A DNA stretch of 63,266 bases, filler included. It is 11 parts of 11 records of this genome, joined end to end, with 100 filler letters (N's around TTAATTAATTAA, not from the genome) between each part and the next. Parts side by side here need not be neighbours in the genome. Positions count along the whole stretch, not along the records: positions 8,637 to 13,812 come from SRR15195285_244; 10 more parts are not named here. One strand, given 5' to 3'. The notes below the pieces were generated by a model. The model searched no databases. It saw nothing but the letters and a program-made list of their open reading frames with translations, and was not told where the DNA came from. Shown in pieces: positions 3,630-63,266 of this stretch. A program made the translations under genes and the position numbers. Position 1 is the stretch's first letter. Every line of letters begins with the position of its first letter.

Positions 3630-5180
3630 CTACGGAACCCTACCGCTGCTGCTCCTCGTCGAGCGCGGGGAGGGGCGAAATGAGCCATGCCGATCGCCTT
3701 CGTAGCCTCGGGCGCGGTTGATACTCGTTGCCTCTTCTGGTGTCGAATCAATCGAGATTGCACCTTCCAACAACGCGGCGAACCATTGTGCCGTCGGATG
3801 GCGCATGTTAATCAATATTATCTTTGCAGCGGACATGATTGGCACAGAGAGCAATGCCCCCGTGATGCCCCAGAGCATGTTCCAGAATACGAGGGCGAAC
3901 AGGACCACGACTGGATGCAAATTAAGCCGCGCGCCAAACAGTGCTGGTTCCACAAAATTTGACACGGCGAAAGACATCAGGTACGGTCCTGCGATTGCTG
4001 TGATCTTGGATATCCCATCGACTGGCGCCAGCCAGATGATTGGCAATGGGACGCCAAGAGTGGCAACCGTCAGCCCAACAGTCGGTATGAAATTGAGCAA
4101 GAACGTCAGAACGCCAAACACTGCCGCAAGGTCGATACCGCAGGCATTCAGCATAATCGCGTGGGCAACACCACAGAGTGTAGATATAGCCACTTTGAGC
4201 GTCACATAAAGCTGTAGTTGACGCTCGATTGTGTAAAGGACGACCTGCTTCTCTCGCTTGGAAGATGTTTTGGAGCCGAGAAGAATGAAAATCACATACA
4301 GCATAACCAACGTCGCAAAGGTGATCACTTCTGTCGAAACCTGCACCACAGACAAAGCGAGGGAGGAAATACGGCTAGCCTCAGACATAGCAGCGATAAC
4401 CTGCTGCCGCTGGTCTTCTGTAGGTGATATTTGCAGCTCGTCGAGCTTGGCTAGAAAGGTCCGGCTCTCATTTCGGAATGCCGACTCGTATAGAGGCAGC
4501 TGCTCCGTAAACTGCATGACGGACTGTTGCACGATCACACCCACCGCGAAGAAGAACGATAGCATCAGTCCTACCACCAGTATCAGCGCGACTGGATTGG
4601 GAAGCCGGATCGTTAGAAAGGACGTGGCCACTGTGCAGCAGCAGTTGTTCGGGTGCCGCTCCTCCAGGCTCAAGCATGCGCGGCAAGTTCGTTGACACCA
4701 CACGCGGCGGCAGCACCGCAATGGACGCTCAGTCAGGAGATCTAGCATCGGCAGTAGCAGCGTCGAGATGAAAAGCGCCGTGACCAGGGGTACCATGACT
4801 GACTGGAGCATAAACAATCCAACGATGGTGGCGTATGCCGTGAGCAGCACGAGGCATGTCTCTGTTGGCCCTCCAGCCCGCTGTCTCCACGCGCTCGCCC
4901 AGGCTGGACGCAGAGGCGACAACCCCGGGCGGTCATCATCTTGCCGGTCGTCAATACTGCTGTCGAAAGTATCGTCCCCATCGATTGTGTGTGCATCGCT
5001 CGATTTCTGGATGCCTCCGCCTGCTGTACTCGGGCTGCCGGTGAGCGGTTTTAGTTCTGCTGCGCGAGGGTCGAAGTCCTGGTCATGAACATGAGCTGTG
5101 TCGCGTGCACGCATGATGGACGGCGTGAAGTGCAGCGTATATGCCGGCGAGGAGCGTCCAGCAGAGGGTGGCTGCTGCAT
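3630..5180 (-). CDS. AI-2E family (PerM/TqsA-like) transporter
   Basis: 516-aa ORF with multiple hydrophobic helices and family motifs 'VMVPLVTALFI', 'YVTLKVAIS', 'FLLNFIPTVG', 'NFVEPALFG..LNLHPVVVLFALVFWNMLWGITGALLSVP'. Confidence 0.85.
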   Translation of the reverse strand: MQQPPSAGRSSPAYTLHFTPSIMRARDTAHVHDQDFDPRAAELKPLTGSPSTAGGGIQKSSDAHTIDGDDTFDSSIDDRQDDDRPGLSPLRPAWASAWRQRAGGPTETCLVLLTAYATIVGLFMLQSVMVPLVTALFISTLLLPMLDLLTERPLRCCRRVWCQRTCRACLSLEERHPNNCCCTVATSFLTIRLPNPVALILVVGLMLSFFFAVGVIVQQSVMQFTEQLPLYESAFRNESRTFLAKLDELQISPTEDQRQQVIAAMSEASRISSLALSVVQVSTEVITFATLVMLYVIFILLGSKTSSKREKQVVLYTIERQLQLYVTLKVAISTLCGVAHAIMLNACGIDLAAVFGVLTFLLNFIPTVGLTVATLGVPLPIIWLAPVDGISKITAIAGPYLMSFAVSNFVEPALFGARLNLHPVVVLFALVFWNMLWGITGALLSVPIMSAAKIILINMRHPTAQWFAALLEGAISIDSTPEEATSINRARGYEGDRHGSFRPSPRSTRSSSGRVP

Positions 5181-5303
5181 TACTTAGCACGGTACTGTAC
5201 CTCCCCATCCATCGCTGCCCGAGTCCCGCATGAATGCATTGTTTCCCGGCCAGGCAGGACATCGTGATTTTGAGGTCGGGCAGAATGCACACACACTGCC
5301 TCA

Positions 5304-5403
5304 NNNNNNNNNNNNNNNNNNNNNNNNNNNNNNNNNNNNNNNNNNNNTTAATTAATTAANNNNNNNNNNNNNNNNNNNNNNNNNNNNNNNNNNNNNNNNN
5401 NNN
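5304..5403. other. Artificial contig spacer (first of ten)
   Basis: N44-TTAATTAATTAA-N44, which carries stops in all six frames. Identical spacers occur at 8537-8636, 13813-13912, 18571-18670, 24741-24840, 33765-33864, 37485-37584, 41222-41321, 45383-45482 and 58186-58285. Confidence 0.98.
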
Positions 5404-8310: not shown

Positions 8311-8689
8311 TGGCAGGGAGTGGGCAAAGCAGCTGCCGGTATAGCAAGTGCTAAAGCATAGCAGCGCGAGAGTACGTCGGTCGCACGCGCGAGCGAGTTC
8401 GGCCCGGGGGGGTGCAGCGCAATAGCACGCGTAGCAGGTCGGAAAAGCGCTCACAGACCGCGCGCCGCCCACGCACGCCGGCAGTCAGCAGGCAGCTCTA
8501 GCTCGTCGCCGCACGCATTCCTCAAGTCCGTGCGTTNNNNNNNNNNNNNNNNNNNNNNNNNNNNNNNNNNNNNNNNNNNNTTAATTAATTAANNNNNNNN
8601 NNNNNNNNNNNNNNNNNNNNNNNNNNNNNNNNNNNNGTCCTGTTTGGCGGTGTCGGGCCTTGCCACCGTAGTGGAAGGCGATCAATGCT

Positions 8690-8884
8690 TACGTGACTCT
8701 GTATGAGAATACATGTATGTGACATCACGAGGAATGTCATGTAAGTATTTTTAAAAATTGAAATGTGACAGTAGGAATGTCATGGAAGTATTGATGTGAC
8801 AATGGGAATGTCATGGAAGTATGGAGTGACTCTAGGAGAATGATGGTAAATGTCACGCTAGTTGTTTTAAAACAGAGTCACGTA
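8690..8884. mobile_element. Putative MITE (~195 bp) with terminal inverted repeats and internal tandem units
   Basis: Perfect 13-bp inverted repeat TACGTGACTCTGT (8690-8702) / ACAGAGTCACGTA (8872-8884), readable as TA plus an 11-bp TIR. The AT-rich interior holds three copies of ATGTGAC-N4-7-GGAATGTCATG(G/T)AAGTAT. Confidence 0.55.
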
Positions 8885-9006
8885 GCGTTGCCGGAATTTG
8901 ACGTTGTTCACCACACGTTGTGGTACCCTACTCTAGGATGGTGATAAGGCCATGGATGCCAGCGTGACGATGAAAGTCTACTTCAGCATGGATGAATACT
9001 GTGATT

Positions 9007-12000
9007 TCAGTCGGTCGACAGAAGCAGTCCCCCTCCTAGACGGACGGGAGAGTGCTCAAGCCCAATATCATCAAGTTGTGGGCTCGATGAGCCACTTCTA
9101 GCAGAACTCGGTCTCCTCGCCAGCCGTGAGCTTAGCTTGGACAATGCAGATTGTTTTGAACCGGTGGAATGCGCGTGTTCCAGCTCAGCGAAGGTGGTAT
9201 CGTAGACACCGACGCGCTTGATGCAGGCTGAGACTGCGTCATGGATGCGGCGTGTGCAATCATTCAAGTCACTCGCGCCTGGCAATGATGACTGCCCATG
9301 ACCGTGTGCCGGGATGTGTGATGCGGTAGCAGTTTGCAGCTTAATGCCTTGAAACTTCAGCAGGGCTGTCACAACACCTTGCACTGCCGGTGCAGGTTGC
9401 CCAGTTGCCTGTTGCAGCAGCTCTTGTAGGCCGTCAGTCGAGCTGTCACCTGTGTGTTCGTGCAAATGTGTAACGACCTGTTGCATGGTTTTCGCCGATG
9501 GTGTAGTCGCCAGCGCTCCGACGCCACCAAAACTCTGCGACTCTGTGAAGAAATCTTCTTCGCCGATCAGGATCGGTAGGACCGCCTTGATGCGCCCTCG
9601 TTGATGCAGCTCAAGCGCTGCAGTCCACTCGAGCAATACATTGTCTATCCAGTCGTCTGAATCCGTGAGCCGCACCATCGGTGCAACAGATCCCACGGAC
9701 ACCAATGGAACAAACACCATGGACTTCGATAGCCCCAGCATAAAGCCAGAATCCCAGCGCTGGCCGTCCTCCAACTTCGTTTGATCCAGGTAAACACGTA
9801 CCTTCTGCCCTGTGTCAACAAGGGTCATGTTAGATAGCTCGTCAAACAGCCGTCGTGCAAGCTCGCGGTCACTTGCTACGCGATAGCTGATAAACACGTG
9901 CGTCGACTTGTTCACTAGATTATCAAGAGTGTGAAAGTAGGCCGATAAAATCTTGAGATCATCGGCACTGGTGAGGCCGAGCTGCAATAGATGAATTGCA
10001 CGCTGTCTGGCTGCCGTGGAGCCCCCGTGCCCGTCCTCGGCGGCTACATCCTGCGTGGATGCCAGATGCTGTGACAGCAGAGCATTGGCCAGCATGGCAT
10101 GCTTTTTCCAAACACTCCAGATGAATACAGTGGGGACGCAAATCACGAAGCTCAGGACCAACACGAAGTCGTAAATGCTGGCCGTCGATGCTGTCGCTGC
10201 CGAAGATGATGACTGATACTCCAGACACTTCAGGGCCAAGGCAATTGTGACAGTCAAAACCAGATGCGCTTCAACGGAAGCCTTCAGCAAGTTGTCCTCG
10301 AAATGTTTGTATGGCGTCAGATGAATCTGAAGGGAGAAGCAGACGAACGAAATACACACTGCAACGAATAGCTGGCCAACGCTGCCTCGCCCAACTACAA
10401 CCAACATTCCTACCATCGCCAGCTTGCGCACCTGCAAGTTCCACACATCAGCAATGTTGTGAGCACCTCTTACGAACCTAGCTCTCCAGTATACACGGTG
10501 TCGCTGGTACCTTCTGATTGCATATCTAGGATGGAGAGAGCTTGTGTAGAGTGCTGAACTTTGCTGCAAGGCTTACCATATCCACACCTTCCCAGTAAAA
10601 GAATCGTGGGTTGAACGCATTGACGAGGAAGCTATACTCGCGACCGGTTGACACGTCGCGAATTGCATCAGACGCCACGGAGTCCGAGATCTTCAGCTCA
10701 TCCGCAACTCGGCGAGCAACGAAGCGATCACTTTCGCTGTTGTCCTCGTACTCTGCTATTCTCGACAACATCAGGACAACCGTTGTTACGGGCACACCCA
10801 GGCTGAAGAACACCACCACTATGCCAGCTACCAGCTGAAATACACCGTGAACTGCACTGTCACAAGAAATGTCATAATCCGCGACTAAAACATGAAGGTG
10901 GGAGTCAAGCACTCTACAATTGAACATGGAGAAGGCACGATTGCAGATCCCAGGATATATCAGGAACACAACCACGAACAAATCGCTTTTCAAGTTCGCC
11001 TTTGAATCTGACTGCTCCTGATCATCCCGGCGAGACTGGTACAGATATCGAAGTAGAACAACCGCAACCATCGCGACAGGAATCAGGAACACTCTGATGA
11101 CCCATATCCTGTAAAAACTTGCGTCCAGAATGCAGTCTAGCTGCAAAATTGACTGCAGATCAACTGCTAGTGGACTTAGCATCGAAAACACCTGCAGAAT
11201 GCCTGGCGGGAAGTCAAAGTGGAGCACTGGACCTATTTGCGTCACGACTTGCCCATATCCGACGAGGATGCGAATCGGTTGATAAAGAGCTCGAAACCAC
11301 AGTCCTATGCGGTATCTCCATGTCGGCGCAGCCCTCAGACCAGGAGTAAGCTCGGATGTTAGATCTCCCGACAGTGGGTTGTCGATTGATTGTCCTGCTC
11401 GGGCCGCCATAGCTTTGTTTTCGTTTCGGCGCTCGCGCCATATATACAAGCCAGGGCAAAGTACCAGTACCACGACAGCAGCCACCATAACGACAATAAA
11501 GTGTGAGCGACCCGCATCTGAGCACAACTGACATTCATCACCAACCTTACCAAAGCCACGCTCGCAAACTGCGCATAAAATACCACGGTGTCCTGGTTGG
11601 CACAAGTGACCATCGGCATGGACGCACGCTGGCTGTATCGGACACCGGAAAATGTGAGATGGGCTGCTGTCAGGGTCAGTAAACGCCCAGCCGTTACGAA
11701 CGCGGACCTCATCTGTGCAGCTGGCAACGCAGTCTAGTCCATCGCACGGGACGCACACTGAATCTGCAGCAATGGTGCCATGCGTCAGGTCTTGCTCCAC
11801 ACACTGCAGCCTGTTTCCACCGAACTCAGTAGCATTATACGTTCCTACCGGACACACGCATTGTGTTCGTGCCTCGTTCGCAACTTGGCCAGCAGGACAC
11901 GATTTACAGTTGGTACCGCTTGGGCTGGTTGCGAATTCGCTACACCTAGAGCATAGATAGGCGCCTGTGACAGAGTTTGGTGACTCTCCAGGCGGACAAG

Positions 12001-13807
12001 GCAAGCACGCTCTACCGACAGCCGAATAGGTACCGTATGCACACTGTTCACAACGAACACGATCGATAGTTGGTTGCTGCCCTCGGCCACATGAGTCGCA
12101 GCGCAATCTTCCATCCTCATCCTGGCGCTCAACAAACCCTTCTGCACAAACGCAAGCAGACCCATGCTCGTTCGGCCGTGCACGAACGTCTGAACACGCG
12201 ATTGGTGCCATAGAAATCGCAAGCAGAGGATAACTTTCACTGGCCGTGACGGCGCCCGTGTTGATGTTTGTGATGGCTCTCATTGGGACTATCGGGGCGG
12301 CATTTGCAGCTAGTGTAAACTCGAACAGGCCTTTTGTGGTCAGCCATGGTCCTGGGACAGCACAAGTGTAAGTCCCATCCTTTTCGTCATCACATTCGAA
12401 AGACGCTTCAGAGACGTGAGCAAACGTAGAGCTCTCCAGCTGAACAACAATCCTCTGGCCACCCCGGCTGATTGCATCGCCACTTGCGGTCCGCGTGATG
12501 ATTTTAAAAGAACACGCATCACCAACAGCGCACTGAACCGGGGGGACTGGAGTGATTAGAGTTTTGCTCAAGTCTGCTACTTCTAGAGATGTTGACAGCT
12601 GTAGAGTCCGCAGATCTGCAAAACCGTTTAGAATAGAACCCAGCTCCGCAGTACCCGCCGGGTCAAGTGGCAGCTGTAGTTGGTTGTGTTCGAGTCGTAG
12701 GCTCCGCAGCTGATGTAAGTTTTTGAGCTCGGTGGGGAGCTCACCAGCGATGAAGTTTTCAGAGATGTCAACTTCGGTCAATGCTCGCAGCATCCCGATC
12801 TCTGGTGCGATAGTGCCTCGCAATCCCAAACCACGCATATTCAGTGCAACGACACGCGCAGTGGAGCAACTGCGAGTGCTGTCTGCACAGCATTGCGTTG
12901 ATAGCAACTTTGCTGAGCTCTCAAAGCAATGTGCATTCTGGGGCGTGTAAGTCACATTAAGCCAAGATCCGTGTGTAGGTATGTGTATAGCAACGTCAGA
13001 CGGCGTCCAAGGATGTGTTGCAATGCTATCAATTTCAAGCGTGAATCCTGCAGCAGTGACACTCACATCCGTAACGAAACTGATGTAAACATTTGGTCCA
13101 GTGGATTCCACCGTGTCAGGAAGATCTGATAAATCACCTGACAGTTGAGCAAGCTCCGGGGATCCACTATTGGATCCGTCGAAAATGGTTACAAAGTCAT
13201 AGCCCTGCTCGGTCGCAAAATCTTTAAGCTGTATCAAAAAGGTGCCTTCGCCACGGAGATGGACTCCACAATGGAGATCGTTTTCGTACGGACCTGCGCC
13301 ACTAGTGACAACACCTTCTCGAACGTCAAACACGGAGCCATCTGACTGACATACAGATATTGCAGCTAATCCAGTATGCACACCAGCTGCACTGACTGCT
13401 GATGTACCATGGTTTCGAGTCGTTGAAACGTTGAACGTCGTTTCGTGATAGTGCCCAGCTACACTTGACCGAATCTGGAACGACGTCGTTGCAGCTGTCC
13501 CCTCTACTGCTGGTGAGGCTTCGAACAGCCTCGATTGTGGTATCTCCATAGGACGATCATCGAAGTTGTTGCTCACCCCAGTCCACACTTCCGTTGCGTT
13601 GCTGTCGACTCGAAGTGAAAAATAATCGAATTCGATCGAGCCATTGGATCTGATCGTGGCTTGCACGTCTTCACGAGGCAGCGTTTGTGCCAACGGTGTA
13701 CTGGACGGCTCCGTGCGGTCACGCACCATTTCCCAGTTTGCCGCGAAACCAAAAAGAGGCCCCCCGTGCCAAGCAGCGTGACAATCAGTACGCCAACGCA
13801 CTAGCAT
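9007..13807 (-). CDS. Multi-pass membrane receptor: CUB, LRR, filamin/Ig-like and Cys-rich ectodomain, multi-TM bundle and cytosolic TIR domain; probably 5'-truncated; 2 exons visible
   Basis: ORFs 10526..13807 and 9007..10569 join via intron 10576..10432 (GTAAGC...TTGCAG), giving 'FFYWEGVDM|VRKL'. CUB 'YENDLHC...FATEQGYDFVTIFDG...FVTDVSVTAAGF', plant-type LRR 'GLRGTIAPEIG', CxxCxxG repeats, TM region with 'QILGYGQV'-like and 'LVADYDISC' motifs, TIR 'HVFISYR...VYLD...VFVPLVS...VLLEW'. Confidence 0.85.
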
Positions 13808-14088
13808 GTCACNNNNNNNNNNNNNNNNNNNNNNNNNNNNNNNNNNNNNNNNNNNNTTAATTAATTAANNNNNNNNNNNNNNNNNNNNNNNNNNNNNNNN
13901 NNNNNNNNNNNNAGCATCATCGATCAAGCGCCGGATTGTCCATTATCACTTCTTTTTCCTCACCGGGGTTGACCCTCGCGAGCGTGCCGGCACGCGTTCG
14001 CACTGCTGGCTGCGCAGCGCGCTCGTGCTGCTGCTGCTGCCGTGCTGCGGCGGCCGCGCCGCCGCCGAAGCCGCCGCCGCCGAAGCTG

Positions 14089-42619: not shown

Positions 42620-45262
42620 CTAGATCGGCATGACTGCGAGATCACTCTCGTCGTCCGACTTGAGTGCAGCGTTGCTGACACTAATGTTGCTATACGTGAC
42701 TGTCGAGTCCGTCGGGCACTCTCCGACGCACCGCGTTCCGTCCAGCCAGCTCATGAGTACCCAGCTCTTGCCCCACAGCTGGAAGGTCAGTACCATGCCC
42801 TGATTCAGTGCTGCACTCATCTTGGCGAGGTATGATCGAGTACCAGTAGCATTGAACGTGAACTTCGATCCGTCCTGCTCGACTGTGTTCTGAATCTCAA
42901 GCAAAACGTCTCCCGTTGTATCTACCACGAACGTCTGTGTGTGTGTGAACGGCCGCCGAGTGTCGATGGTACACGTTGCTGCAGGGCAAAGCGCGTCGCG
43001 TGGCGAGAATCCGGTGGGTGGGAAAGGGCCGGCACCATCGCACGAGCGAATATAGCCACCTGCGGCGTCTGAGCACGAGTGCGGCGTGACCTTCATCACA
43101 TGCTGATTCCCCTCGAGGGAATCCATCTCCCAGCAATCCACGCCCCACACCTTGTTGCTATCACAATAGTAATTGCCCTTCAATGACGGCGCTGGCCGAC
43201 CGTGGATGTCGTAGCCCGGCATGGCCACCCAGTACAAAGCTGCGTTGCAAGAGCAAGGTACGTGACTCAGATCAACCGTGTAGCGCAATGTCTTCCCCAG
43301 CAGACTGAAGTGAACATAGCTGTTTGAGTTCATCTCGCCATCGCGTGACACCCAGATCCGTGTGCCCTGTGGCGTAGAGTTGTTCGAGTAAGTGCCATGC
43401 GCCAGTGTGAGCGTGCGTCGATCCACAGAAATCTGCACAGTGCCTGCTGACTCAGCGAGGGCGACGATATGGTGTGATGTATCGATCCCGTTGACTGCGA
43501 CGATGAAAGTGCCCTGGTCGACGCTGGATGCAGCCGTGTTTGTGTCGTCATCTGTCTTGACCGTTTGCTGCGGTGTCTTCTGCGTCACGCTCCCATGCCA
43601 CGCGCTGACGTTGACGGTCACGCTAACGTGTTCGAACTCCCGCGTAAAGACCCCAAGACTCGCGTTGACGATTGTCATCGGACCCAGCGGCGCCCCCAGC
43701 GGCTCGTCATCTGATCACCACAGCATGTGCACGCAGCATCAAGCGTAGCTACGAGCGAATTTGGCAGAGGTGAGGTGGCGGCGGAGCCAGACGGGGACAG
43801 GAATTTGGGAGGCTTACACGCTTTGAACCACGGGAAGCTTGACTCCACTCCCATCCAGCCTGTGCCCATCGCGACGTACGAGTACTGCTCTGCTCCCACC
43901 AGGAACGCTGCTCGCACTATTCACACGCACATCAGCAGCGACTGAGTATTGCAACGGCAAACTTTTAAGCCACGGCACAGGTGCGTCATTGCTTCACTGC
44001 ACTCACAGAACTCAAAATTGGGATCCATCGCGTTCGCCACCTGCGTGTGAACCATCGTTGGGATGCCGGCTCTGGCGTAGTTTGCTGCAGTGAAAATATC
44101 ATCTGTGAACCACACATAGCAGCGCACAGAGTGTCGGATTCAGGTCGCAAAGCGCGGAACCAATGAGACCAAGCAGTCAGTTAAGACACAAGCAGCAGCT
44201 GTTGGTCGTCGTCGTCCAACTCATCCTTCTGTTTCGGCGGCGGCGGCGGCGGCAGCCTCACTCACCGATGCAACATCGCTCGCGGGACTTGCAGGCCGAG
44301 GCGAACTTGTCCTTAGCCGGGCAAAAGAATTCATTGAAGTACCATGCCTTGGTCTCCGCCAGCACCTGCGTCTGCGCTTTATGAAACGTCGGGTCGGGCC
44401 AGCGCTCTAGTGATTTGATCGACATGATCGCGTATTTCCCCTTGCTCGCGAGAAACCGCGTGATGTTCTGCATTGCGTTCACCCAGCAGGTCTTCGTCCT
44501 TGCCTTGCGGGCCGCCGAAATCTTGCAGCCCATGAAGTCGCTGCCGTCAAGCTCTTTCGGCATCACCCAACGGTCAACTTCGTCGAAGAAAACGCCGCCG
44601 AGCTGCGCGGATGGGTCAACGAAGGACGCCAGGATTGTGTCCTGATAGTAGCGGACCATGTCAGGCTTGCAGAGGTCGTAGATGGGGCCGCGGCCGCGGT
44701 CGGTGTCGGAGTAGCAAACCTTACCATCGTCGCCCGTGAACCACAGCGACTCGTGCTTCGAGGAGTTGAAGTCGTCCCACCACCAGCTGTAGTAGCCCGT
44801 GCAACAGCCGTAGAAGCCGGTGTAGGCGCCGACGAACGTGGATGGGTCAATCGCGTGCACCTTGGCCGCGTCGCTGGCAGTGCAGTTCTCGGTATTGGCG
44901 TAGCCCGGTTTGTTGTCCTTGCACCTGGCCCAGCCCTCGAACCCACTGCCCGTGCAGTTGCTCCAGGTGCACGCGGCGCCGGCCTTCGTGCACGCACCTG
45001 GGTACTGCTGGCCCTGCGTCCAGGTCACAGGGTACTTGGCCATCAGCTTGGCTGCGCCTGGGCTGAAGTCGGAGCTGCCCTGCCCCGAAGCCCACACGGG
45101 TAGTGACTTCCAGCTCCACGGCCACCACGGCTTCAGGCCGTCGCCACCGTCCGCACCGTCCGCCGGTAGCAGTTCGACGACGGGGCTGCTGCCTGTGCCC
45201 CCTGCCTGCATCGACGCGATGAGCAGCAACCGGCCGTGGAGTAGCAGCAGGCCAGGCTGCAT
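42620..45262 (-). CDS. Secreted two-enzyme glycoside hydrolase polyprotein: GH168/GHL15-like (putative fucanase) + GH7 (endoglucanase-type); 4 exons
   Basis: Signal peptide present. Introns 44265..44103, 44006..43917 and 43817..43711 keep frame. Module 1 reads 'WSWKSLP', 'GVFFDE', 'NEFF', 'AAFLVGAEQYSY..GTGW', 'YDEPLGAPLGP', 'FTREFEHVSV'. Module 2 has GH7 motifs 'TVDLSHVPCSCNAALY', 'YCDS', catalytic 'EMDSLEGN', 'TPHSC', 'IDTRRPF', 'GMVLTFQLW', 'MSWLD', 'VTYSNI'. Confidence 0.85.
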
Positions 45263-45713: not shown

Positions 45714-48700
45714 ATGGAGCGGACTAAGGAGATGTTGGCGAAGAGCTTCGGTGAGCGCCTCTATCGCTCGTCGATCGCTGCTAGTAGCGCTTGTATCGCT
45801 CCTGTACAGCTCCGCTGCAGCAGCTCATCTATAGCTACTGTGCAGCTGATATACAAATCCTATATAGGTCCTCTGCCAGTCCTGTTTCGTCCCTCTATAG
45901 CTCATCTAGAGCTCCTATGCGCGATCCTCTATAGCTCCTCCATAGCTCGTATGGCTGCGGTCGAGCTGTCGATAGCATCTCTGTCATGGCGGCTGGTGGC
46001 TGACGGCGCTATCTTCCGCAGGCTTGCTCCCAGCCGGCTCGGTGGCGCTGACAGCAGCAGGGACTATGGTCTGGTGTGCTGGTGGCGCTATCTGCGTACA
46101 GGCTTGCCTGGGGCCAGCGGCCACAGCCGTGATTAACTCAGGCGTGCTCGGTTTCGGCGGAGGCAAACATCGAGATATGGACCCAGCCTTGTCGCGGCCG
46201 TCTGAACGGCGACGTGGGCGTCGCAAAAGAAAGGCGTGGTGGTTGACAGCGACAGAAAGTGAACTGCGTAATGACTCAGATCGGCATCGCGCACGGTTTG
46301 GGGTCGACCGCGTCGGTCTGAACTCCCTGGTTTGCATTTTGCCAGATGTGGCCACAGTTGGTGTAGCCACGGCCGTTGCATGTGGTGTTGGCAGTCGTGC
46401 CGCTGGCGCTGCAGCCGTTGTGGCAGTAGTCTGCGTCGCTGGCCTGCGCACCAGCATCGTCGTGCAAGGCTTGGAAATGGGAGAGTCCAACGGCCTGGTT
46501 GCAGCATTTGCGCCAGACTTGCCTGTCGAGGCAACATCGGTTCGTGTAGGCCGGGTCGAGCTCAGACTGTCGTGGCGTTTGCAGTTCGGGCTGCACGTGA
46601 AGGATGTGTCGGTCGAGCTCCGGCCGTATGACCTCGGGTCGAAGGCACTTCATTATGCTCGACTGCGTCGTCGGATCGAGCGACGAGCAGTGGATGCTCA
46701 CAAGGCCAGGCGCCGACTTGATGATTTGGAAGAAGAGCAGCGCTTTATCGCACAGCGGGGCAACACGTGGTGGCTAGGGCAGTCGCCTCAGTCGGGGATC
46801 TACAAAGTAGTCACCAGCTGGTGGCATCCACGAGGCGCTCGCGTTCGCAGAGTTGCTAGCGGAGAGTCAGTCGTTCTTGGATACCTTGGTGTATTTGACC
46901 ACAGCGTTGGTCAAATGCTCCGCCTGGGTGGCGTCGCGGTGGCTGTAGCTGCAATTGCTGGCTCTTGCATGTGCTCTTTGCGTGGAGGTGACGCGAAAGG
47001 TTGCCGAGAAGCCGCTCGGCAATCTGCGAAGGCCGTCAGCGCCACCGGATTGATAGCAGCGTTTTTCGCCGACCGGATTGTTGCAGCTGTTTTGGATCGT
47101 GTGTATATCGAGGTCGACCGTGTTGATTTTAGCTTCACAGATGGAGAGCACATAGCTTGTGTGACGTGCGACGAAGTTCGATGGGGACGGCTTGTGGACC
47201 CAACAACACTAACCGGGCGTACGTTTTGGCAGCGGTGGATCTGGAGCACCTACGGGCCTCTGCCATCTTTACATAGCCTCAGAACCAGCTCAGTAGCATT
47301 CTCAGTTGCCGCGCAGAATATACCGGCAGACGCATGCTTGACGGTGGCACCGTCAATAGCAGAGGTGAGCGTTGTAGCGGCGCACGCATCGGCGCAGGCA
47401 AGTATTGAAATTGGGTTTCCGGCAATCAACGTGACCTCCAGTGGACGCCACACAATGGCCGCACGGAGGTTGCGCCAGCTGAGGTCTGAGTTGTTGCGTG
47501 GCAGCAAGGTGATGCAATTTGGCCTTGAAAGACTCTGGTCACCACAAGAGACTGCGTTGCGCCGATGGCAGTACGCCATTTGTTCTGTTCTGATTGATTG
47601 CCAGCGTCGTGCGGAAAAAGGCACCATTAGTACGGAGCTGAAAACTCGCGCCTTGAAGTATCCTCAGCGTAGGGCTGCACGGCTATGGAGCTATGCATTC
47701 CGCTGCGTGAGAATGGAGTTGCTGCGAGCGCAGTACGGGCGCAGCAAGCTTTTGCAGACTACTGTTTCGGAACCCGTGGCACGAGGCCCGGACGTCAGTA
47801 GGGATTCCGAACGGATCGGCGAGCTGGAAGACCTTGACCTCGACGATCTTCACGAACAGGCTTTGGCCGCGGGGGCAGAGCCCTCTCGCCTCAGACTTGC
47901 TGAGGACAGCCCCAGCCCGCGTGACGCGCTCATCTCCCTGTTGCTGGGCGCAGAGCAGGCGTATCCCATATTGCGGTCTGACAGACGTTGGTGTATTCAG
48001 ATTGGCACAGCTGAAGCAAGATTTGTGGACACTGGTGACGAAGCCGAGGCGACCACTGTCACACTCTCGGCAAAGTCGCTCCGGAGTGTGCAAACTCGCC
48101 GCGAACCCTTCGGGTCTGCGCTTCCGTTAATGGCAGTAGATGCGACCGTTGGAAAGCTGAGTTGTAGTTTCAATTCGTTTCGTGTGCTGCAAACCAACGC
48201 GCACGTCCTGACGGCCCGGTCTGCCAACTGTTTAGAGATTACAATGAACTCCTCGCACGACCTGCGAGCTAGGATGGGCGCGCTCAAGGTGTCACTAACG
48301 CCAGACACTTTGCACACCGCTCTGTCGATCTACAGCGAGTTTGACATGGCTGATGATGAGTATGTTCTCACACTAGTACGAGAAAATGCATTCCGAACGA
48401 ACAATGTTTCTTACTTGTCGGAACCCGTTGTGGACGAGGATCATATTGGAACATTTCGTGAAACCCGGTGGTTACGACATCGACACCGACCGCAGGTGGA
48501 CATCAAGATTGATTTACCAATCATCAATATCGGCAGCGATGATACAAAGCGAATCCTCGAACTGGACCTCGGCACAGTGAATGCTGGCAACACATCGGCC
48601 ACTCTACGGGACCTGTTGACCAGCGCCGCGCAACTGGACGACACCAGATACAACACAGTAGGCTGTAGGTGGGAAGGGGCAAAGGCGACTTTCGCAAGCA

Positions 48701-51700
48701 AGACCTCCGGTGGCCGCCAGCAAGTGTTTGAGGGCTTTGGTGGCACAGCTTCTGTTCAAATTTGCGCTCTCTCGGCCGACTACATGTGGGCACAGAAGTG
48801 CCCTCAACTACAGCTGTCTATCAAGCTTGAACCACTTGCGGCCAAAGCAACACGATCGACCGCTGCCGGGCTTATGGATCTGACGCTTGCCGTGCATCGA
48901 GCACTGTTGGACGGTGAATCCCTCATGGTTGCGCGGGGCGATGTGGTTGAAGTAACTCCGCCGAGCTTGGGGCGATTCGCACACACGGCACACTTGGTCC
49001 GATCACCTGAGTCAGCACGGTGGTGCTTGCGGCACGTGGCTATTGAGCCTCGCGAATGGACCTTCTCAATCTTGGACGAGTGCTCTGCTCGTCCCATGTT
49101 GACGTTTGCTTTCGATGTTGACGATCTTCGCCTACAGCACTTTAATACGCAGCACCACAACTTGCATCTCCAGCTCAAGTTGCATGCATACGCATACAAC
49201 ACGTCCGTTGTTGCTTGGGAACCTATCATTGAGCCGTGGACAGCACGACTGACTTCGCTGCAGTCAAATGATGAAACACACGTCAGATTTAACGGGGACA
49301 AGCTCAATATCAACTTCTGTCCGTCGCTGTTTCGCAGTCTCACGCTTCGGCAGTCAAAGCAAAGCTCAAGCTCAGGCGATGTGCAAACTTGGCTGGTGAA
49401 TTACACAGGCACTGCCATCAGGTACAGAAACGTATGCTCATTTGACTCCCACGGCCGAGCCCTGGCGCGCGACGTCCAAAATCATCAGCAACATTGCCAG
49501 CTGGAGGATGGGGCGAAGGGATTCCTGGACATGGTTGGCCCCTCTGGACCTGGAGTTTCGTTTGATCAGGGCTTGGCAGTTGAGTTTCCTGATCTATTGT
49601 GGCATGACGCAGAGTTCACTGACGTGTCTCGCGAAGGAGTGCAGTCCAAGCTTATTGGCGGGAGTATGGCTGGTATCACTGTTGTCTGCGTCACCGAAGT
49701 TCAGGATGACGGAACACGAGTCATCACACTATGTTCGGGTGTCAAGGTTGATAATCAGACAAATCGAGACATCGAGTTTGGCTTGCGTAGGTGTGATGTG
49801 GCAGGCACCGTGGATCAGCACGTGCGGTCTGCGATGGTGGTGCCGAGCGAGAGCACTGGGTTCTTTCCTGCAGCACTGTGGGCTGCGAATCGGCACGACA
49901 ACTGCTCCTCACAGCTGGTGGTATTCCGGACGTGCGATGGAGGAGATATTTGGACTGATCCGTATGATGTACGGCAACCTATTGCGGCTACATCTGCGGA
50001 GCTAGTTGTTTGTAACGAAGGCACCGAACGCCAGTTCACTGCTTGCCTGTCTACAACACCGGGCTATGCTCCAGCTGGCAAGCTGAGCGTCCTGACGCTA
50101 TTCAACTGTTTGGATGTACAGAACGACTTTGCTTTCCCTCTTGAGCTGCATTTTTTTGAAGAGGAAGTTCCCAGCACCCAGCCGACAGTTCCGTGCGCTG
50201 CAGGCAATCCGACAGTGCGCCCCCAGCGTCGTGCACTGGTCGAGCCTGGGTCACGGGTTGACGTGCCAGAATGGGATCCGAAAAAGGATGCCTGGATGGC
50301 CGTGGCGAACTGCGAGGGCGCTATCTCTTCTCGAGTTTGTGTATATCGCGCACATGACTCAGACGATCAAAGCTTAGCGTCTGACGTGGTCCTGCGTGGT
50401 GGCCGATTTGCTTACGGCGGGATCCGTGCGGAAGATTCTAGTAAACTGAACACAGACAGCGGAATGGAACACGCTAGCTGTATGCCGCTTTCACTACACT
50501 ATGAAGCACAAGGAATCACGGCGGCAACAGCAGCAGATGCATCTCACCTGGTCAGACTATCGTGCTCTTACCTTGTAGTCAACAATACCCCGTTGCCATT
50601 GGTATTGCGTTCTCGGCACGCGAAGCACAGCGATCGAGATGTCGTTGTTGCTCTTCCAGGCTGCGATCTGACTGCTGACGATCGGCCCACCCCTATCCCT
50701 TTCACCAGCCACGGGAACGTTGAAATCGGAAAACGTGTCGATGTGCTCGGCACTGAGGAAGTTGATTCAGACCACCCGGACGCCATGATCCTGTCTCTTG
50801 TCTGCGGCAAAACACTGCGAGCCGGACTGCTTGACAGGCTAACGATGGACGTCCCTGATCCGTATGTTAAGGTCACGTTTGCACCCAGACACGCTACAGA
50901 TAATAGTACTACAGACAAACCGCAATACGTCTTCGGGGACCCAGTTCACATCGGTCGCACAACAGCGATACAAAATAGTGCGGACCCGGTGTGGAACGAA
51001 CGATTCTTAGTCCGTGTACCTCCCGATGGGGGCATGATCGCATTGAAGGTTATGGATTTCGACCGCTGGTCGGGTGATGACTCAATTGGCGAGGTCAAGC
51101 TTGATGTAGAGCACGGAGCCACGATAGAGCAGACCACAGTTGACGTGCTTGGTCTAGGTGGAATGAGAAAGGGCCAACTTGAGATTGGGTTGCAGAAAGC
51201 GACCGGCTGCAGCGTGCCGCCCGTTGGGCTTGTTGTAAGCACATGGGGATCGCGAGTCGTCTCAACAGCCCAAGCAGGACCACAGATGCTGCCGGTGTCT
51301 TTAGGACTAGATGATCTCGGCGTCACAGTGGTGCCTTTGAATAGATCTTCTGGGGCGCCGCACGTAGTGTCCATTGTGCCTCGGTATCGTGTGGATAATA
51401 TGTCGCGCCACAATGTGATAGTGGCTGTCGGACAGTGCGATGGTCATCAGATACGCGTCTGTGCAGGTGAGTCTGAGCTTGTTGGACTCAGATCTGGAGT
51501 AGACCCCAGGTTGTTCTTCAACGCTGGACAGCTGGACGACGGCAGCTCGTCTGCGTGGTCCCGTGGCGTTGTGGCCACTGATGGCCAGTCTGATTTAGCT
51601 GTCGACTCGACCAGAATCATGTCCGGCGATGTCAAGCTTGACGTGCGATACGAAGTTCACGGCGGAACGGGTGTGTTCACTGTTCAGGAGGGAACGCCAG

Positions 51701-54700
51701 CACTTGTTGTTGAAAATTTGGCGTTCGACCAGGTGTGGATTGCAAAAGACTTGGCTGCCACAAGTCGACGCCACAAGCTCAAAAGACGTACGACGCAGAG
51801 CACTAGGCTATCGAGTTCGCGAGGAGAGACGACCAAATGGATCAGATTGAGTAAGACTGAGCGATTTTGCTTCCATGAATGGGATTGGCACACAGAAACA
51901 CATATTCGGCTCAAAACATGCAACGGTCAAAGCCACACTGTTGATGTCAGCACCCTTACTGATTCCAGCTCTGATGAATGGTCTTGGACCACTGCAACGG
52001 GGGAAACATTATGGCCACAGGTCCTCGTGGTCAACAACGTCAGGCTGCTACGGTTGGGCAAGACAGCTGTGCGACCGCGCGGTCCGGGCATCGAGTCTAT
52101 GTTTAGGCTGAATGCATCGCTGCCAGGAGTGGGCCTGTCAGTCATCGGTGACCCAAAACACGGCCGTGGAGCAGAGCTTCTGTACGCAAGTTTCAGCAGC
52201 GTGGCATTACATCACCTGGAGAAGGATGGTAGGCTCACCACCGACTTGTCAGTCGGAAAGTTGCAGGTCGATGAGTACATCAGTGGCGCAGACCGACCTA
52301 GTCAGCGGGACATGATTGCTGGGCCTCTTGTGTCGGAGAGACAATCAAGCCTGTCTTCAATGCTACAGATTCGCACAGTACGTTTATATCAGGAAGGGCT
52401 GGCTCTGTACGAGTCATTTGTGGTGAAGACGCGCCCAATGTTCTTCAACTTGAAATGGTCGACTTTGTCGCGTCTGCTGCGTGAGCAAAGCGTGCAGCAT
52501 CTTTGCCGTGCGCTAGTTTACGCAGAATGGAGCGTCGATAGGCGACCACAGACTAGTACTAAGTCCCTTCTTCACTCTGTAGAGGTCGATCCTGTGAGTG
52601 TTGCGGTCAATTTTGACATGAAAGGATGTGCTAACGGAAGCAATTTGTTGAAGGTTTTAGGGCTGCACAAATATGCACAGCAGCTAGAAGCTGGCGGTGA
52701 GCAAGACACAGGAACGATTCAGAGTCAGCGGCTAAACCTGAGCGACATCTTCTACACGCCACAGCAGATACTGTCGGATGTAGCTGCCGACGTCCTTGGG
52801 CAGGTCGCCACATGTCTGACGTCATCGTCATCGGCTTCAGTTGCAAGATCAGAGTCTGCAGTAGCCATGCACCAGAAATCAGGCAGCACACGTTCCATGC
52901 GCACTGCAGGTGCGGACAATTTCGCACCAGAGGATGCACTTGTCCTTGCGACCGAACCACCGGATATGAAGATCAATGAAATGGTGAACAAAGTGACCGA
53001 CACAACGCCAGGGTGGCGGCATCGCGCTCAGTCCACAAGAAACATTCGCTCAGACAGCCAGCTATTTGCTGAACGCTGGCCGCGCGTTTTTGGCCTGAAC
53101 GGCACTGTCAAGGATTACAGCGTCAATAATGTAGTTCTGTGCACGCTTCTTCAAAAGAGTGGATGTTCCGAAGCAAGCGAACTCGACGAGGACTGTCTGA
53201 GCATCGTTGCTGTCGCAGACCCTGGAAATCCAAAGAGTCGATCGTTGATGCTTTTGACAAAACACACGATTTTTTTCGCGAAGCCGGTCGCCCACGGCAA
53301 CCGATTACACAACCATCGCAGTCGTGTACGTGATATCGGAACCTTGGAAATGGTGTTTGGTGATGAGATCACTGTACGAGACATCCAAGACCTGACGGTA
53401 GAGATTTCTACAGGCACTCTGCTTTTACGGCTGTCAGGTTCAAAACGTAGTTTCACCACTTACGTCGGCGAGAGGGATGAACCGCTCGAGACTGAGTTCA
53501 AACTCGCAGAATTCTTCAACCACCTGGTTGGGTTGCTGGAGAATATCAGGGCAGTTGCCGCTCAGTACAGACGTTTTGGGGGGGCGTTGTTGCCACACAG
53601 ACTGACCACTCATCATTCCGACACCACCAGGGGTCGCAAGAATGGCAGAGGGAACAGTGCACCTACCACAGTTACTTTGACGATACTTGATGCTAGCTGG
53701 GAAGATCTTTGCACTCACGGGCGTCGATACAGCGCGTGCAAAACCTGCAGACGCTTGAGACTGAAACCAAATAGGCCCAGTAGCGACGATTGGTTTTGCG
53801 AGCTGCAGGTGGGCAAACGTAGACCGCGTAAACTCTCGGTCGGCAAGCAAGTCACGTTTGACGTAGGTGGTGGTCCACAATGCGTGGTGGCGTTGAAGAA
53901 CGCAAGTACTGTCGGAGCCAAGTGCATAGGCACAACTGAACTTCGTGTCGACAGCTCTAGTGTCGAGTCCAGTCCAAAGGAACAATGGTGGAGCCTTTCG
54001 CCTCTCCCAGGCAGTAAGGAGACACCAGGCGCGAAAGTGAAGATGTGTATGTCATGCTCACCTCGCATTGACGACACTTTATTGGATGTGCCGAGAGACG
54101 CAACGCTGCTTTCCAATATGTTCGATACGTGCACGGTGTTGCGGATAGATATCAAATCCATTCGTCTGCCGACCAGCGCAGACGCTGCGCATGGCGAAAG
54201 GCTCACCTGTGCGCTGAAAATCGTGCGCGACGGCCTGACTGTGGCAGAAAAAGATGCATTTGTGATAGTCTCAGCTACAGAGCAGCGCTGTGAGGCTCAT
54301 GGCCTGGAACCAGTTCTTTTTGATCTCACGGAACTGAGTGCTGCTGGTCAGGAGTATGCGAAAATGTGTGTGCATGCGCAACTGCTGCTGTATGGTCGGT
54401 CTACAGTTGTGTGCGAAGAAAAATATCCGTTCCCTGGGGCCCAGATTGGATGGGCAAGAGAGGAGGACCCAACAACAATTGAGCAGGAGGTCAACTCGAA
54501 GGTTCGAGTGGCGCGGCGAGGAGACATCGACGTGTCAATGAAAGTGGACGCGATCCGGACTTCTTGGACCAATGTCGATTTGCCTTCGTATCCTCAGTTA
54601 GTTGACTACGAGATTACGCTCAGGACAGGCGAACACGGTGATGCAGGCACTGACGCAAGCATCTTCGTACAGTTGATTGGCGATCAAGGCCACTCACCTC

Positions 54701-63114: not shown

Positions 63115-63266
63115 GCCCGCCTCTCTAGAGAGCACCTAGGCGGCGGCGGCGGCGGCGGCGGCCGCGCCCAAGGCGGACGAGCCCGCCGCTGCGTCTCCAA
63201 GATAGTAGAGACCCCCCCGAGGACGGCGCTGCGCTGCCTACAGCTCCAGCTTTCAAGTCCACACGG

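Follow-up and report, generated by a model that had tools for sequence, protein, structure and literature searches.

Bacteria, plants and animals all rely on TIR domains in innate immunity. To our knowledge, the single-span TLR/IL-1R design is the only well-known coupling of a TIR domain to the cell surface. The TLRs of animals and choanoflagellates are multi-copy receptors whose variable, LRR-containing ectodomains face outward and whose C-terminal TIR domains face inward on the other side of a membrane anchor, and they are described as single-span proteins (PMC7075850, PMC6040629). Other TIR domains work within soluble assemblies, such as the octamer of the animal NAD+ hydrolase SARM1/TIR-1, or in cytosolic sensors where they are partnered with NB-ARC, Argonaute or SIR2, as in plant TIR-NLR resistosomes, Thoeris and SPARTA. 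A separate group of membrane proteins, Pkd2/Flc/Trp663 (PF06011), has nine helices, an extracellular N-domain and a cytoplasmic C-terminal part. This arrangement is reported for S. pombe Pkd2, and in the fungal proteins the N-domain is described as ML-like and lipid-binding and the tail as mostly disordered (10.1101/2022.08.11.503631). Reconstituted Pkd2 is reported to pass Ca2+ upon membrane stretch (PMC9727806). Here, we analyzed a window of 63,266 nucleotides, consisting of 11 contig pieces joined by N44-TTAATTAATTAA-N44 linkers, and describe a gene of an uncultured marine protist that combines an ectodomain, a nine-helix channel-like domain and a SARM1-like TIR domain, a receptor design that has not been described before.

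Results

The gene lies on a contig piece of 5,176 bases (8637..13812) bounded by the artificial N/TTAATTAATTAA linkers and consists of two minus-strand reading frames (13864..10526 and 10572..9007) that are joined via an intron; all features given below are on this strand. The part of exon 1 present in the window spans 10577..13812 (frame from 13810, 1078 codons) and is followed by a phase 0 intron of 145 nt at 10432..10576 (GTAAGC...TTGCAG), located between M1078 and V1079 within membrane helix 6. Exon 2 (9007..10431) comprises 474 codons plus the stop codon at 9009-9007, and P0162, P0012 and P0253 share its conserved C-terminal end. The first-pass annotation had taken the ATG at 13807 as the start, which we reject: the frame is open up to the end of the piece at 13812, and the database protein P0001, which is 100% identical to the exon-1 product, continues for 352 residues upstream, so this ATG is internal and the contig end cuts the 5' end of the gene. 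With the 5' end missing, no signal peptide is visible in the window copy itself; the relative P0172 (1,684 aa) begins with a signal-like stretch, and its domains come in the order of the window protein.

Relatives read through the position of the intron. Of the 74 proteins first listed as relatives, at least 11 do so, and we observed this read-through in P0016, P0022, P0026, P0039, P0162, P0164, P0165, P0171, P0172 and P0176, where the junction is unbroken (...FWEG.DM directly followed by.RKL...). Residues 169-408 and 409-698 of P0022 match the end of exon 1 and the start of exon 2, respectively, in a gap-free manner, and P0162 and the spliced window protein are 53% identical in an end-to-end alignment of 782 positions. 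Moreover, the metagenome locus L002 has a single ORF of 1,957 codons, free of stops, that runs from LamG through CUB, LRR, DUF7630 and the membrane domain to TIR_2 and was recovered as a single tblastn segment covering query residues 150-1525, and locus L004 contains an 89-nt GT-AG intron at the same codon, one nucleotide off the intron site in the window. Seven short contigs from four RNA runs in three studies (polyA and oligo-dT included) lie on the exons, four of them identical to the window, which hints at expression. The intron is crossed by none of these seven RNA contigs, and the evidence for splicing comes solely from the comparison with relatives. This comparison supports the first-pass annotation in assigning the CUB/LRR/Cys-rich ectodomain, the multi-pass membrane part and the TIR domain to one protein. 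We conclude that this is one real gene and that it is probably expressed.

The N-terminal side of the window protein contains 38 Cys and 5 N-glycosylation sequons, and most of the modules previously proposed for it were recovered. A CUB domain (residues 161-258, 13037..13330) is matched by the Pfam model (E 3.3e-9; 37.5 bits on the exon-1 product, cut-off 21.4) and by a cubilin CUB domain (E 2.7e-7). It is followed by about 3-4 plant-type LRR units and their Cys-rich cap (residues 304-419, 12554..12901), which clearly match the solved ectodomains of the plant LRR receptors GSO1 (E 4.9e-45) and FLS2 (E 8.6e-33); on the exon-1 product, Pfam LRR models gave only sub-threshold matches (E about 1e-3). 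These LRRs make up a minor share of the ectodomain. A Cys-rich stalk of ephrin-receptor/TNFR-like repeats (11516..12202), defined by DUF7630 and the family profile, ends in DUF7630 (residues 721-763, 11522-11650; E 5.2e-6, 26.9 bits, cut-off 27), and the family profile matches the ephrin-receptor-like repeats of the mastigoneme protein Mst1 (E 3.6e-6). For the proposed Ig-like domain, we found a possible filamin-type beta-sandwich at the matching position (residues 425-483, 12362..12538), but the Filamin match is sub-threshold (E 0.0011, 20.1 bits, cut-off 26.9); a similarly weak match occurs in the relative P0173.

The multi-helix bundle suggested earlier resolves into nine helices (10105..11503). 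We mapped these by transferring an AlphaFold2 model of P0162 residues 1-502 (nine long helices, pLDDT 84.4, pTM 0.80) to the window protein through the 53%-identity alignment, which places helices 1-5 at spliced residues 770-792, 840-863, 899-922, 944-963 and 989-1016, and helices 6-9 at 1073-1090, 1096-1116, 1128-1150 and 1162-1187. Hydropathy by itself counts 7-8 segments. Lys and Arg residues number 21 on the inside and 2 on the outside in the window protein, and 19-33 inside versus 2-8 outside in all nine proteins compared, window protein included. Together, the modelled helices and the charge bias predict that the N-terminus lies outside and the TIR domain in the cytosol, as initially proposed. 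Two predicted cytosolic helices (residues 1217-1255, 9901..10017; helices 463-474 and 480-501 of the P0162 model) link helix 9 to the TIR domain. Judging from its relatives, the membrane domain is probably channel-like and akin to the fungal Pkd2/Flc ‘TRP’ family PF06011. Six relatives score above the PF06011 cut-off of 28.5 bits (P0162 32.7, P0164 35.9, P0180 30.7, P0191 30.4, P0199 35.1 and P0022 29.4), and P0165, P0171, P0172 and P0168 fall below it. Neither exon product of the window, scanned singly, gave a TRP match at E<=0.1; the stretch that matches PF06011 spans the intron. The Pkd2/Flc proteins differ in what flanks their helices: here, a long CUB/LRR/Cys-rich ectodomain is located on the N-terminal side and a TIR domain on the C-terminal side, and no Pfam match to an ML-like lipid-binding domain was found in the window protein or its relatives. 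The earlier reading of this locus had missed the Pkd2/Flc-type character of the membrane domain, which opens a different interpretation.

The TIR domain, previously placed at about 9340-9903, is present and covers 9448..9903 (exon-2 residues about 177-328), as delimited by Pfam, AlphaFold2, Foldseek and the family profile. TIR_2 (PF13676) matches exon-2 residues 179-291 (9559-9897; E 7.7e-9, 36.5 bits, cut-off 28), and the AlphaFold2 model (pLDDT 93.4) shows the strand-helix alternation of a flavodoxin-like alpha/beta fold. Foldseek returned 12 matches at E<=1e-3 with this model, all of them TIR domains at a TM-score of about 0.5, and the best were the enzymatic TIR domains of RPP1, SPARTA, L7, SARM1, Roq1 and RUN1. 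PADLOC and NCBIfam gave sub-threshold ThsB/ThcB4 matches only. The closest solved relative of the family TIR profile by sequence is the SARM1 TIR domain (E 7.7e-6), with which it shares the fold, the FISYR box and residues aligned with Y568, R569, D594, the BB-loop G601, F603 (an aromatic Trp here) and E642 (profile position 37 corresponds to chain residue 561; the structure 7cm7 carries ‘E642A’ in its title).

The Glu of the DNVLLEW motif (9628..9630; exon-2 residue 268, spliced residue 1346), for which a catalytic position had been claimed, indeed aligns with SARM1 residue 642 (cDnVLLEw/KDWVHKEI) and lies on model helix 100-113, between strands C and D. It is kept in 110 out of 111 and 71 out of 71 relatives covering the site, and the equivalents of D594, G601 and Y568/R569 are near-invariant as well. 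The Trp of the W-x-x-x-E motif (SARM1 W638) is replaced by Asn in the window copy and in 87 out of 111 relatives, and 18 out of 111 carry F, Y or W at this position. A Trp four residues before the Glu is reported as a ligand contact in SARM1 (PMC7075850, where the W-x-x-x-E pair is W71/E75), and the same source describes the conserved Glu as common in TIR domains without reported activity and as no guarantee of catalysis. In a preprint, 4 out of 29 Glu-bearing protist TIR domains that were tested made cADPR (10.64898/2026.04.20.719644). The ligand-gated NADase proposed in the first-pass annotation is an inference. Two further differences from SARM1 are that no ARM or SAM match was found in the window products or full-length relatives, and that the TIR domain sits on a nine-helix membrane protein and is followed by a conserved C-terminal extension of about 145 residues (9010..9447; shared with P0012, P0015, P0162, P0164 and P0253). 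This extension ends in a conserved G-G-x-L-(Y/L)-L-(S/A)-(S/T)-x motif, and an Atlas search with it gave no lead.

The gene is a member of an unnamed, multi-copy family found in uncultured marine protists (88 clusters at E<=1e-5), with several copies per single-cell assembly label. The ectodomains vary (CUB, LamG, many LRRs), whereas the chassis of membrane domain and TIR domain is constant; the relative P0168 carries WD40 instead of the TIR domain. TIR domains of the same subtype (D-N/F-V-L-L/M-E) also occur beside Pkinase, Roc-COR, Kelch with Ephrin_rec_like, TNFR with SH2, and PARP. The family resembles the TLRs in its predicted layout, with an outward-facing ectodomain, a membrane part and an inward-facing TIR domain towards the C-terminus, and in being multi-copy with variable ectodomains, but differs from the animal type, as had been anticipated, by having nine helices instead of one, by its mere 3-4 or so plant-type LRRs beside CUB, LamG and Cys-rich modules, and by a TIR domain that matches TIR_2 and SARM1 and not the TLR groups.

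Discussion

We consider it probable that this gene encodes a large integral membrane receptor that signals as follows. The N-terminal part would face the cell exterior, or else a vacuolar or phagosomal lumen, where a particle, microbe, virus or surface may bind the variable ectodomain. Binding would alter how the membrane domain packs or oligomerises and bring the cytosolic TIR domains into contact, a logic of sensing, oligomerisation and active-site formation that is likely common to TIR-NLRs, Thoeris and SPARTA. The assembled TIR domains may then use the helix-C Glu to cleave or cyclise NAD+, resulting in ADPR, cADPR-type products or NAD+ loss, or they may recruit cytosolic proteins with the same TIR subtype, such as kinase-TIR and Roc-COR-TIR, and both routes may coexist. 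Analogy and the size and variability of the family hint at a possible immune role. Should the TIR domain be active, outside-in TIR signalling would have been solved independently here, the family would let nature test whether oligomerising membrane domains can stand in for NB-ARC or SAM scaffolds when TIR active sites assemble, and NAD-derived messengers might be tied directly to a channel permeable to Ca2+.

Alternatively, the TIR domain could be a non-enzymatic scaffold for which NAD+ is not a substrate, and clustering would nucleate TIR-TIR assemblies that recruit kinase-TIR, Roc-COR-TIR and SH2-TIR proteins, in the way that TLRs signal through MyD88/IRAK. The same-subtype TIR domains on Pkinase, Roc-COR, SH2 and other proteins would be ready homotypic partners, the Asn in place of the W-x-x-x-E Trp fits such a role, 25 out of 29 Glu-bearing protist TIR domains were reported to be inactive in bacteria (10.64898/2026.04.20.719644), and in choanoflagellates a role as streamlined signalling partners has been suggested for kinase-TIR proteins (PMC6040629). 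We nevertheless regard a purely scaffolding TIR domain as unlikely, given that the near-invariant Glu and its accompanying residues are what is expected of an active site and that the closest solved relatives are enzymes; moreover, the two roles are compatible.

TRPM2 is a chanzyme with a NUDT9-like domain, and cADPR and ADPR are Ca2+-mobilising messengers in animals. The protein could, along these lines, primarily be a mechanosensitive or adhesion-gated cation channel of the Pkd2/Flc type, with the ectodomain as gate or anchor and the TIR domain as an attached enzyme or nucleotide-binding module. The PF06011 matches of the six relatives (29.4-35.9 bits), the nine helices shared with Pkd2, the PF06011-bearing clusters among the Atlas look-alikes, the stretch-driven Ca2+ passage by reconstituted Pkd2 (PMC9727806) and the Ca2+-mobilising products expected of an active TIR domain are consistent with this. 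However, a search by sequence found no solved structure of this fold, few PF06011 members have documented channel activity, and the exchange of TIR for WD40 in P0168 is more in keeping with a general-purpose receptor chassis than with a dedicated chanzyme, making a primary channel function improbable.

A bolder version of the receptor reading, which we offer as speculation and think improbable, is that a Pkd2/Flc-type oligomeric cation channel serves as a pre-assembled platform for several SARM1-like TIR domains beneath the membrane. Ectodomain engagement would both open the channel and pair active NADases, cADPR/ADPR would feed back on Ca2+ entry, and the whole would be an independent protist invention that diversified into a surface or phagosomal repertoire for immunity or prey recognition. 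If true, this chain of receptor, channel and enzyme would be a membrane-embedded counterpart of both the plant TIR resistosome and the TRPM2 chanzyme.

That the locus represents separate genes or an assembly chimera, or that a reversed topology places the TIR domain in an extracellular or lumenal position, is very improbable and largely refuted by the comparison with relatives: the public gene calls do divide the locus (P0001 ends inside the intron and P0179 begins inside helix 6), the junction is crossed by no RNA contig and hydropathy alone gives 7-8 segments, but the relatives and the single ORF of L002 read through, a protein start within a membrane helix is implausible, and the charge bias is in line with the nine-helix model. 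When genes are called from ORFs on single-cell assemblies, such receptors are cut at their introns, and the architecture is thereby hidden from domain-architecture surveys.

A two-exon gene divided in the public records

The receptor gene lies on the minus strand of the piece at 8637-13812 (5,176 bases), where two open frames, one that reaches 10526 from the contig end and a second that extends from 10572 to 9007, are united in phase by a 145-nt GT-AG intron at 10576-10432 (...GAT ATG/GTAAGC...TTGCAG/GTG CGC AAG...). Exon 1 thus covers 13812-10577 and exon 2 covers 10431-9007. Comparison with relatives bears out the first-pass annotation in treating the two exons as one gene, since the reading is uninterrupted in the database proteins P0022 and P0162 and in the metagenome locus L002. 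Specifically, P0022, P0016, P0026 and P0039 cross the predicted splice site gap-free (...FWEGYDM VRKLLLVGML...). Residues 169-408 of P0022 correspond to exon-1 residues 839-1078 (50% identity) and its residues 409-698 to exon-2 residues 1-303, and P0162 aligns end to end with the spliced protein (53% identity over 782 positions), with a gap-free junction and a common C-terminal end. The junction is also read through in at least 11 of 74 further relatives from a search with the TIR region. L002 is one stop-free 1,957-codon ORF with Laminin_G_3, CUB, LRR, DUF7630, membrane domain and TIR_2, and tblastn matched it in one segment spanning query residues 150-1525. Related loci were searched for with a single exon-2 protein, and in the four others (L001, L004, L005 and L006) the reading is broken close to the junction: in L004 an 89-nt GTAAGT...CAG intron lies 1 nt off the window's splice site, L001 and L005 have an intron about 10 codons upstream of it, and L002 has none. 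A conserved intron position, considered as a candidate feature, is therefore only partly true, the site being the same within 1 nt in L004 only. When the spliced protein was searched against the window by tblastn, the sole match was the gene itself.

RNA matches consist of seven short contigs on the exons, from four runs in three studies (two of the runs polyA or oligo-dT selected). Six fall on 9109-9889 and one on 11041-11284, and four of the seven match the window exactly. None of these short contigs spans the intron and no joints were reported, so they neither prove nor disprove splicing.

Public gene calls split the locus into two proteins: P0001 ends inside the intron, the expected product of an intron-blind gene caller, and P0179 starts at a Met within helix 6 of the membrane domain. 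Architecture surveys built on those calls would therefore miss the fusion. P0001 (1,430 aa) is the same as the exon-1 product at 1,078 of 1,078 residues and extends 352 residues further N-terminally; at its other end it runs into the intron and stops there. The ATG at 13807, taken at first pass as the start, is accordingly internal, in a frame open to the contig end; it is located in the tail of an apparent second CUB domain, and Pfam finds two CUB stretches in P0001.

Ectodomain

The CUB assignment is solid by sequence comparison (Pfam E 3.3e-9; cubilin match E 2.7e-7). Plant-type LRRs occupy residues 304-419 (GSO1, E 4.9e-45; FLS2, 8.6e-33); they stay under the cut-off of the Pfam LRR models because the repeats number three or four. 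The Cys-rich stalk resembles, by family profile, the ephrin-receptor-like repeats of a mastigoneme protein and is closed by the Pfam domain DUF7630, a name of which we found no mention in open-access papers or bioRxiv. Altogether, the ectodomain contains 38 Cys and five N-x-S/T sequons. The CUB, LRR and Cys-rich parts named at first pass thus stand; the Ig-like domain listed with them goes back only to a sub-threshold Filamin match.

Membrane domain and topology

Hydropathy alone is ambiguous, with 7-8 segments in the window protein. We therefore rely on a model of residues 1-502 of P0162, built from a 35-row alignment (pLDDT 84.4, pTM 0.80), in which nine helices are long; one of the loops contains a small beta-sheet, and the large loop that connects helix 5 to helix 6 has three short helices. 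In the window protein the nine correspond to residues 770-792, 840-863, 899-922, 944-963 and 989-1016 (helices 1-5) and 1073-1090, 1096-1116, 1128-1150 and 1162-1187 (helices 6-9), in agreement with the multi-helix bundle proposed earlier, and the intron position is within helix 6. With the ectodomain set outside, Lys and Arg in the loops of the window protein number 21 inside versus 2 outside, and all three loop Cys are in outside loops; across nine proteins (the window protein and eight relatives) the counts are 19-33 inside versus 2-8 outside. With nine predicted helices and the ectodomain outside, the C-terminal TIR comes to lie on the cytosolic side, where the first-pass annotation had placed it. 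We also observe a nearly invariant P-Y-K-H-x-E-D-N motif (10285-10305, minus strand) in the short loop that connects helix 7 to helix 8 on the cytosolic side.

Profile matches relate the membrane domain to Pfam PF06011 ('TRP', fungal Pkd2/Flc type), of which we take Pkd2 to be a member from the Pfam description. PF06011 scores above its 28.5-bit cut-off in six relatives (P0022, P0162, P0164, P0180, P0191 and P0199) and below it in four more, and PF06011-bearing clusters are among the Atlas look-alikes of the domain. Neither window exon product alone gives a score, because the intron interrupts the matched stretch. Against solved chains, the sequence profile of the membrane domain brought up no relative among membrane proteins; the matches were confined to the Cys-rich and TIR parts.

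TIR domain and its glutamate

TIR_2 is above the Pfam cut-off, and a model of the TIR (exon-2 product residues 165-330) reaches a pLDDT of 93.4. Its top structural matches are the TIRs of RPP1, SPARTA, L7, SARM1, Roq1 and RUN1 (E about 3e-4 to 1e-3, TM-score about 0.5). When the family profile was compared with solved chains, the human SARM1 TIR was closest (E 7.7e-6), followed by plant TIRs (about 6e-3) and bacterial TIRs (0.2-0.5). In the SARM1 alignment, cDnVLLEwilAl stands opposite KDWVHKEIVTAL, with the E-x-x-x-A-L pattern kept. Since profile position 37 is chain residue 561 of full-length SARM1, the Glu of DNVLLEW (codon 9630-9628, minus strand; spliced residue 1346) falls opposite SARM1 residue 642, the residue named in the title of structure entry 7cm7 ('Sarm1 E642A'). 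Other aligned SARM1 positions are Y568, R569, D594, G601 and F603 (Trp in the window), and R570 and W638 are replaced by Val and Asn. In the TIR model the helix that links strand C to strand D carries the Glu, which agrees with how the catalytic residue has been defined (10.64898/2026.04.20.719644). The earlier proposal that this Glu aligns with the catalytic position is thus upheld. A single-sequence TIR-1 alignment (E 0.66), which set the Glu 3 residues off, was anchored on a non-conserved 'DW' and is superseded by the profile alignment.

The 'invariant' D, V, L and E of our alignment A1 were set aside as circular, since 34 of its 44 rows had been chosen by the D.VL.E motif and the other 10 carry it too. 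We recounted without the motif filter. Among the best 150 of 1,988 exon-2 matches, 110 of the 111 proteins covering the site have the Glu (the exception, P0029, has Ser), as do all 71 site-covering proteins among the 74 new relatives from the TIR-region search. Four residues before the Glu, 87 of the 111 have Asn and 18 have F, Y or W; in SARM1, W71 and E75 jointly contact the ligand (PMC7075850). After the TIR follows a conserved tail of about 145 residues (9010-9447, minus strand) that contains the motif LLKFQG(I/V)KL and ends in G-G-x-L-(Y/L)-L-(S/A)-(S/T)-x; searched against the Atlas, it scored at most 0.82 and gave no lead.

A family with varying ectodomains

Against 1.84 billion representative proteins, the exon-2 product has 1,988 matches at E<=1e-3, 605 at <=1e-10 and 41 at <=1e-30, and the TIR-region search gave 88 clusters at E<=1e-5, mostly at 64-71% identity. 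All relatives are unnamed or 'hypothetical protein'; their sources are marine metagenomes and the single-cell assemblies COSAG02, COSAG04, COSAG06, SAG22 and SAG31, labels that we take to denote Picozoa. Several copies occur per assembly label (SAG22 on at least four contigs), and on one SAG22 contig the adjacent ORFs _2 (stalk and helices) and _3 (TIR) mirror the window's split. No relative was found on viral contigs.

Compared by domain content, the relatives carry different ectodomains on a constant membrane-TIR chassis. P0172 combines many LRRs with a CUB-like module and has a signal-like start; Laminin_G_3 is an addition in P0173, P0178 and L002; and P0165 has LRRs only. P0168 (1,793 aa), with LRR, DUF7630 and the nine-helix chassis, aligns with the window protein up to the expected TIR start and then continues in WD40 repeats, which may reflect either an exchanged endodomain or two genes fused in the gene call. 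In addition, environmental eukaryote proteins (P0086, P0093, P0099, P0100, P0135, P0144, P0158 and others) join the same TIR subtype (D-N/F-V-L-L/M-E) to Pkinase, Roc-COR, Kelch with Ephrin_rec_like, TNFR with SH2, and PARP domains. These fusions suggest a wider TIR signalling network, in which the fused proteins could serve as TIR-TIR partners.

Comparison with known systems and proposed mechanism

The receptor resembles a TLR in combining an outside sensor with an inside TIR but, with nine predicted helices, is not single-span and hence not a TLR. Its TIR is SARM1-like, yet the protein lacks ARM and SAM domains and is therefore not a SARM1 orthologue. With Pkd2/Flc it shares the type of membrane domain but not the ML-like N-domain. 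In open-access papers and bioRxiv, a TIR attached to a multi-pass or PF06011-type membrane domain was not found described; such proteins may be among the about 16,000 eukaryotic TIRs whose architectures a 2026 preprint lists in its supplementary tables (10.64898/2026.04.20.719644).

We propose, as the probable reading of the whole, a receptor at the surface or in the phagosome lumen whose ectodomain, when engaged by a ligand, would cause the nine-helix domain to rearrange or cluster. Either change would assemble the cytosolic TIRs, whose output would be the cleavage or cyclisation of NAD+, the recruitment of TIR-bearing kinases or GTPases, or both. Whether the TIR is enzymatically competent we put at close to an even chance, because over 70% of all TIRs have the Glu, which alone does not predict NADase activity (PMC7075850), and only 4 of 29 Glu-bearing protist TIRs expressed in bacteria made cADPR (10.64898/2026.04.20.719644). 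NCBIfam and PADLOC gave only far sub-threshold TIR-like or LRR-effector matches. A TIR acting purely as a scaffold, a reading that the cADPR count favours and the near-constant Glu opposite SARM1 residue 642 disfavours, is unlikely. We consider a channel-first 'chanzyme' rather improbable. In its favour, S. pombe Pkd2 lets Ca2+ through when the membrane is stretched (PMC9727806) and is described with nine helices between an N-domain outside the cell and a tail in the cytoplasm (10.1101/2022.08.11.503631); against it, the membrane profile matched no solved membrane protein. An artefact or a reversed topology, for which the RNA contigs, none of them crossing the junction, and the ambiguous hydropathy might be cited, is very improbable given the gap-free junctions and the charge bias. 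The anatomy, the predicted topology and the active-site Glu are shown by the comparisons above, and ligand binding, assembly, chemistry and role are inferred.

Other pieces of the window

Linkers of the form N44-TTAATTAATTAA-N44, with stops in all six frames, join the 11 pieces of the 63,266-base window (5304-5403, 8537-8636, 13813-13912 and seven more sites). As the pieces are unrelated contigs, neighbourhood across linkers gives no context and genes are cut at piece ends. Other pieces carry ordinary eukaryotic genes, including a HECT ligase, a RabGAP-TBC protein with EF hands, a VPS13/C2/PLAT giant and a Myb protein. The giant is a 3,855-codon uninterrupted frame (45976-57540, plus strand) with a weakly VPS13-like middle, a C2 domain and three PLAT/LH2 stretches; its predicted product is an unusual giant lipid-transfer-like protein. 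The Myb frame (58870-63135, minus strand; 1,422 codons) joins two Myb DNA-binding repeats to a fungal-type Zn(2)-Cys(6) binuclear cluster (E 8.5e-7), a combination that is odd outside fungi. On two separate pieces we find an AI-2E family transporter (3633-5183, minus strand; E 2.2e-31) and a bacterial-type glucokinase, PF02685 (7051-8484, minus strand; E 1.1e-39); as these families are mainly prokaryotic, gene transfer or contaminant contigs could explain them. Finally, a partial match to glycoside hydrolase family 7 (cellobiohydrolase-type; 42623-43714, minus strand; E 8.3e-20) presumably belongs to a small heterotroph.
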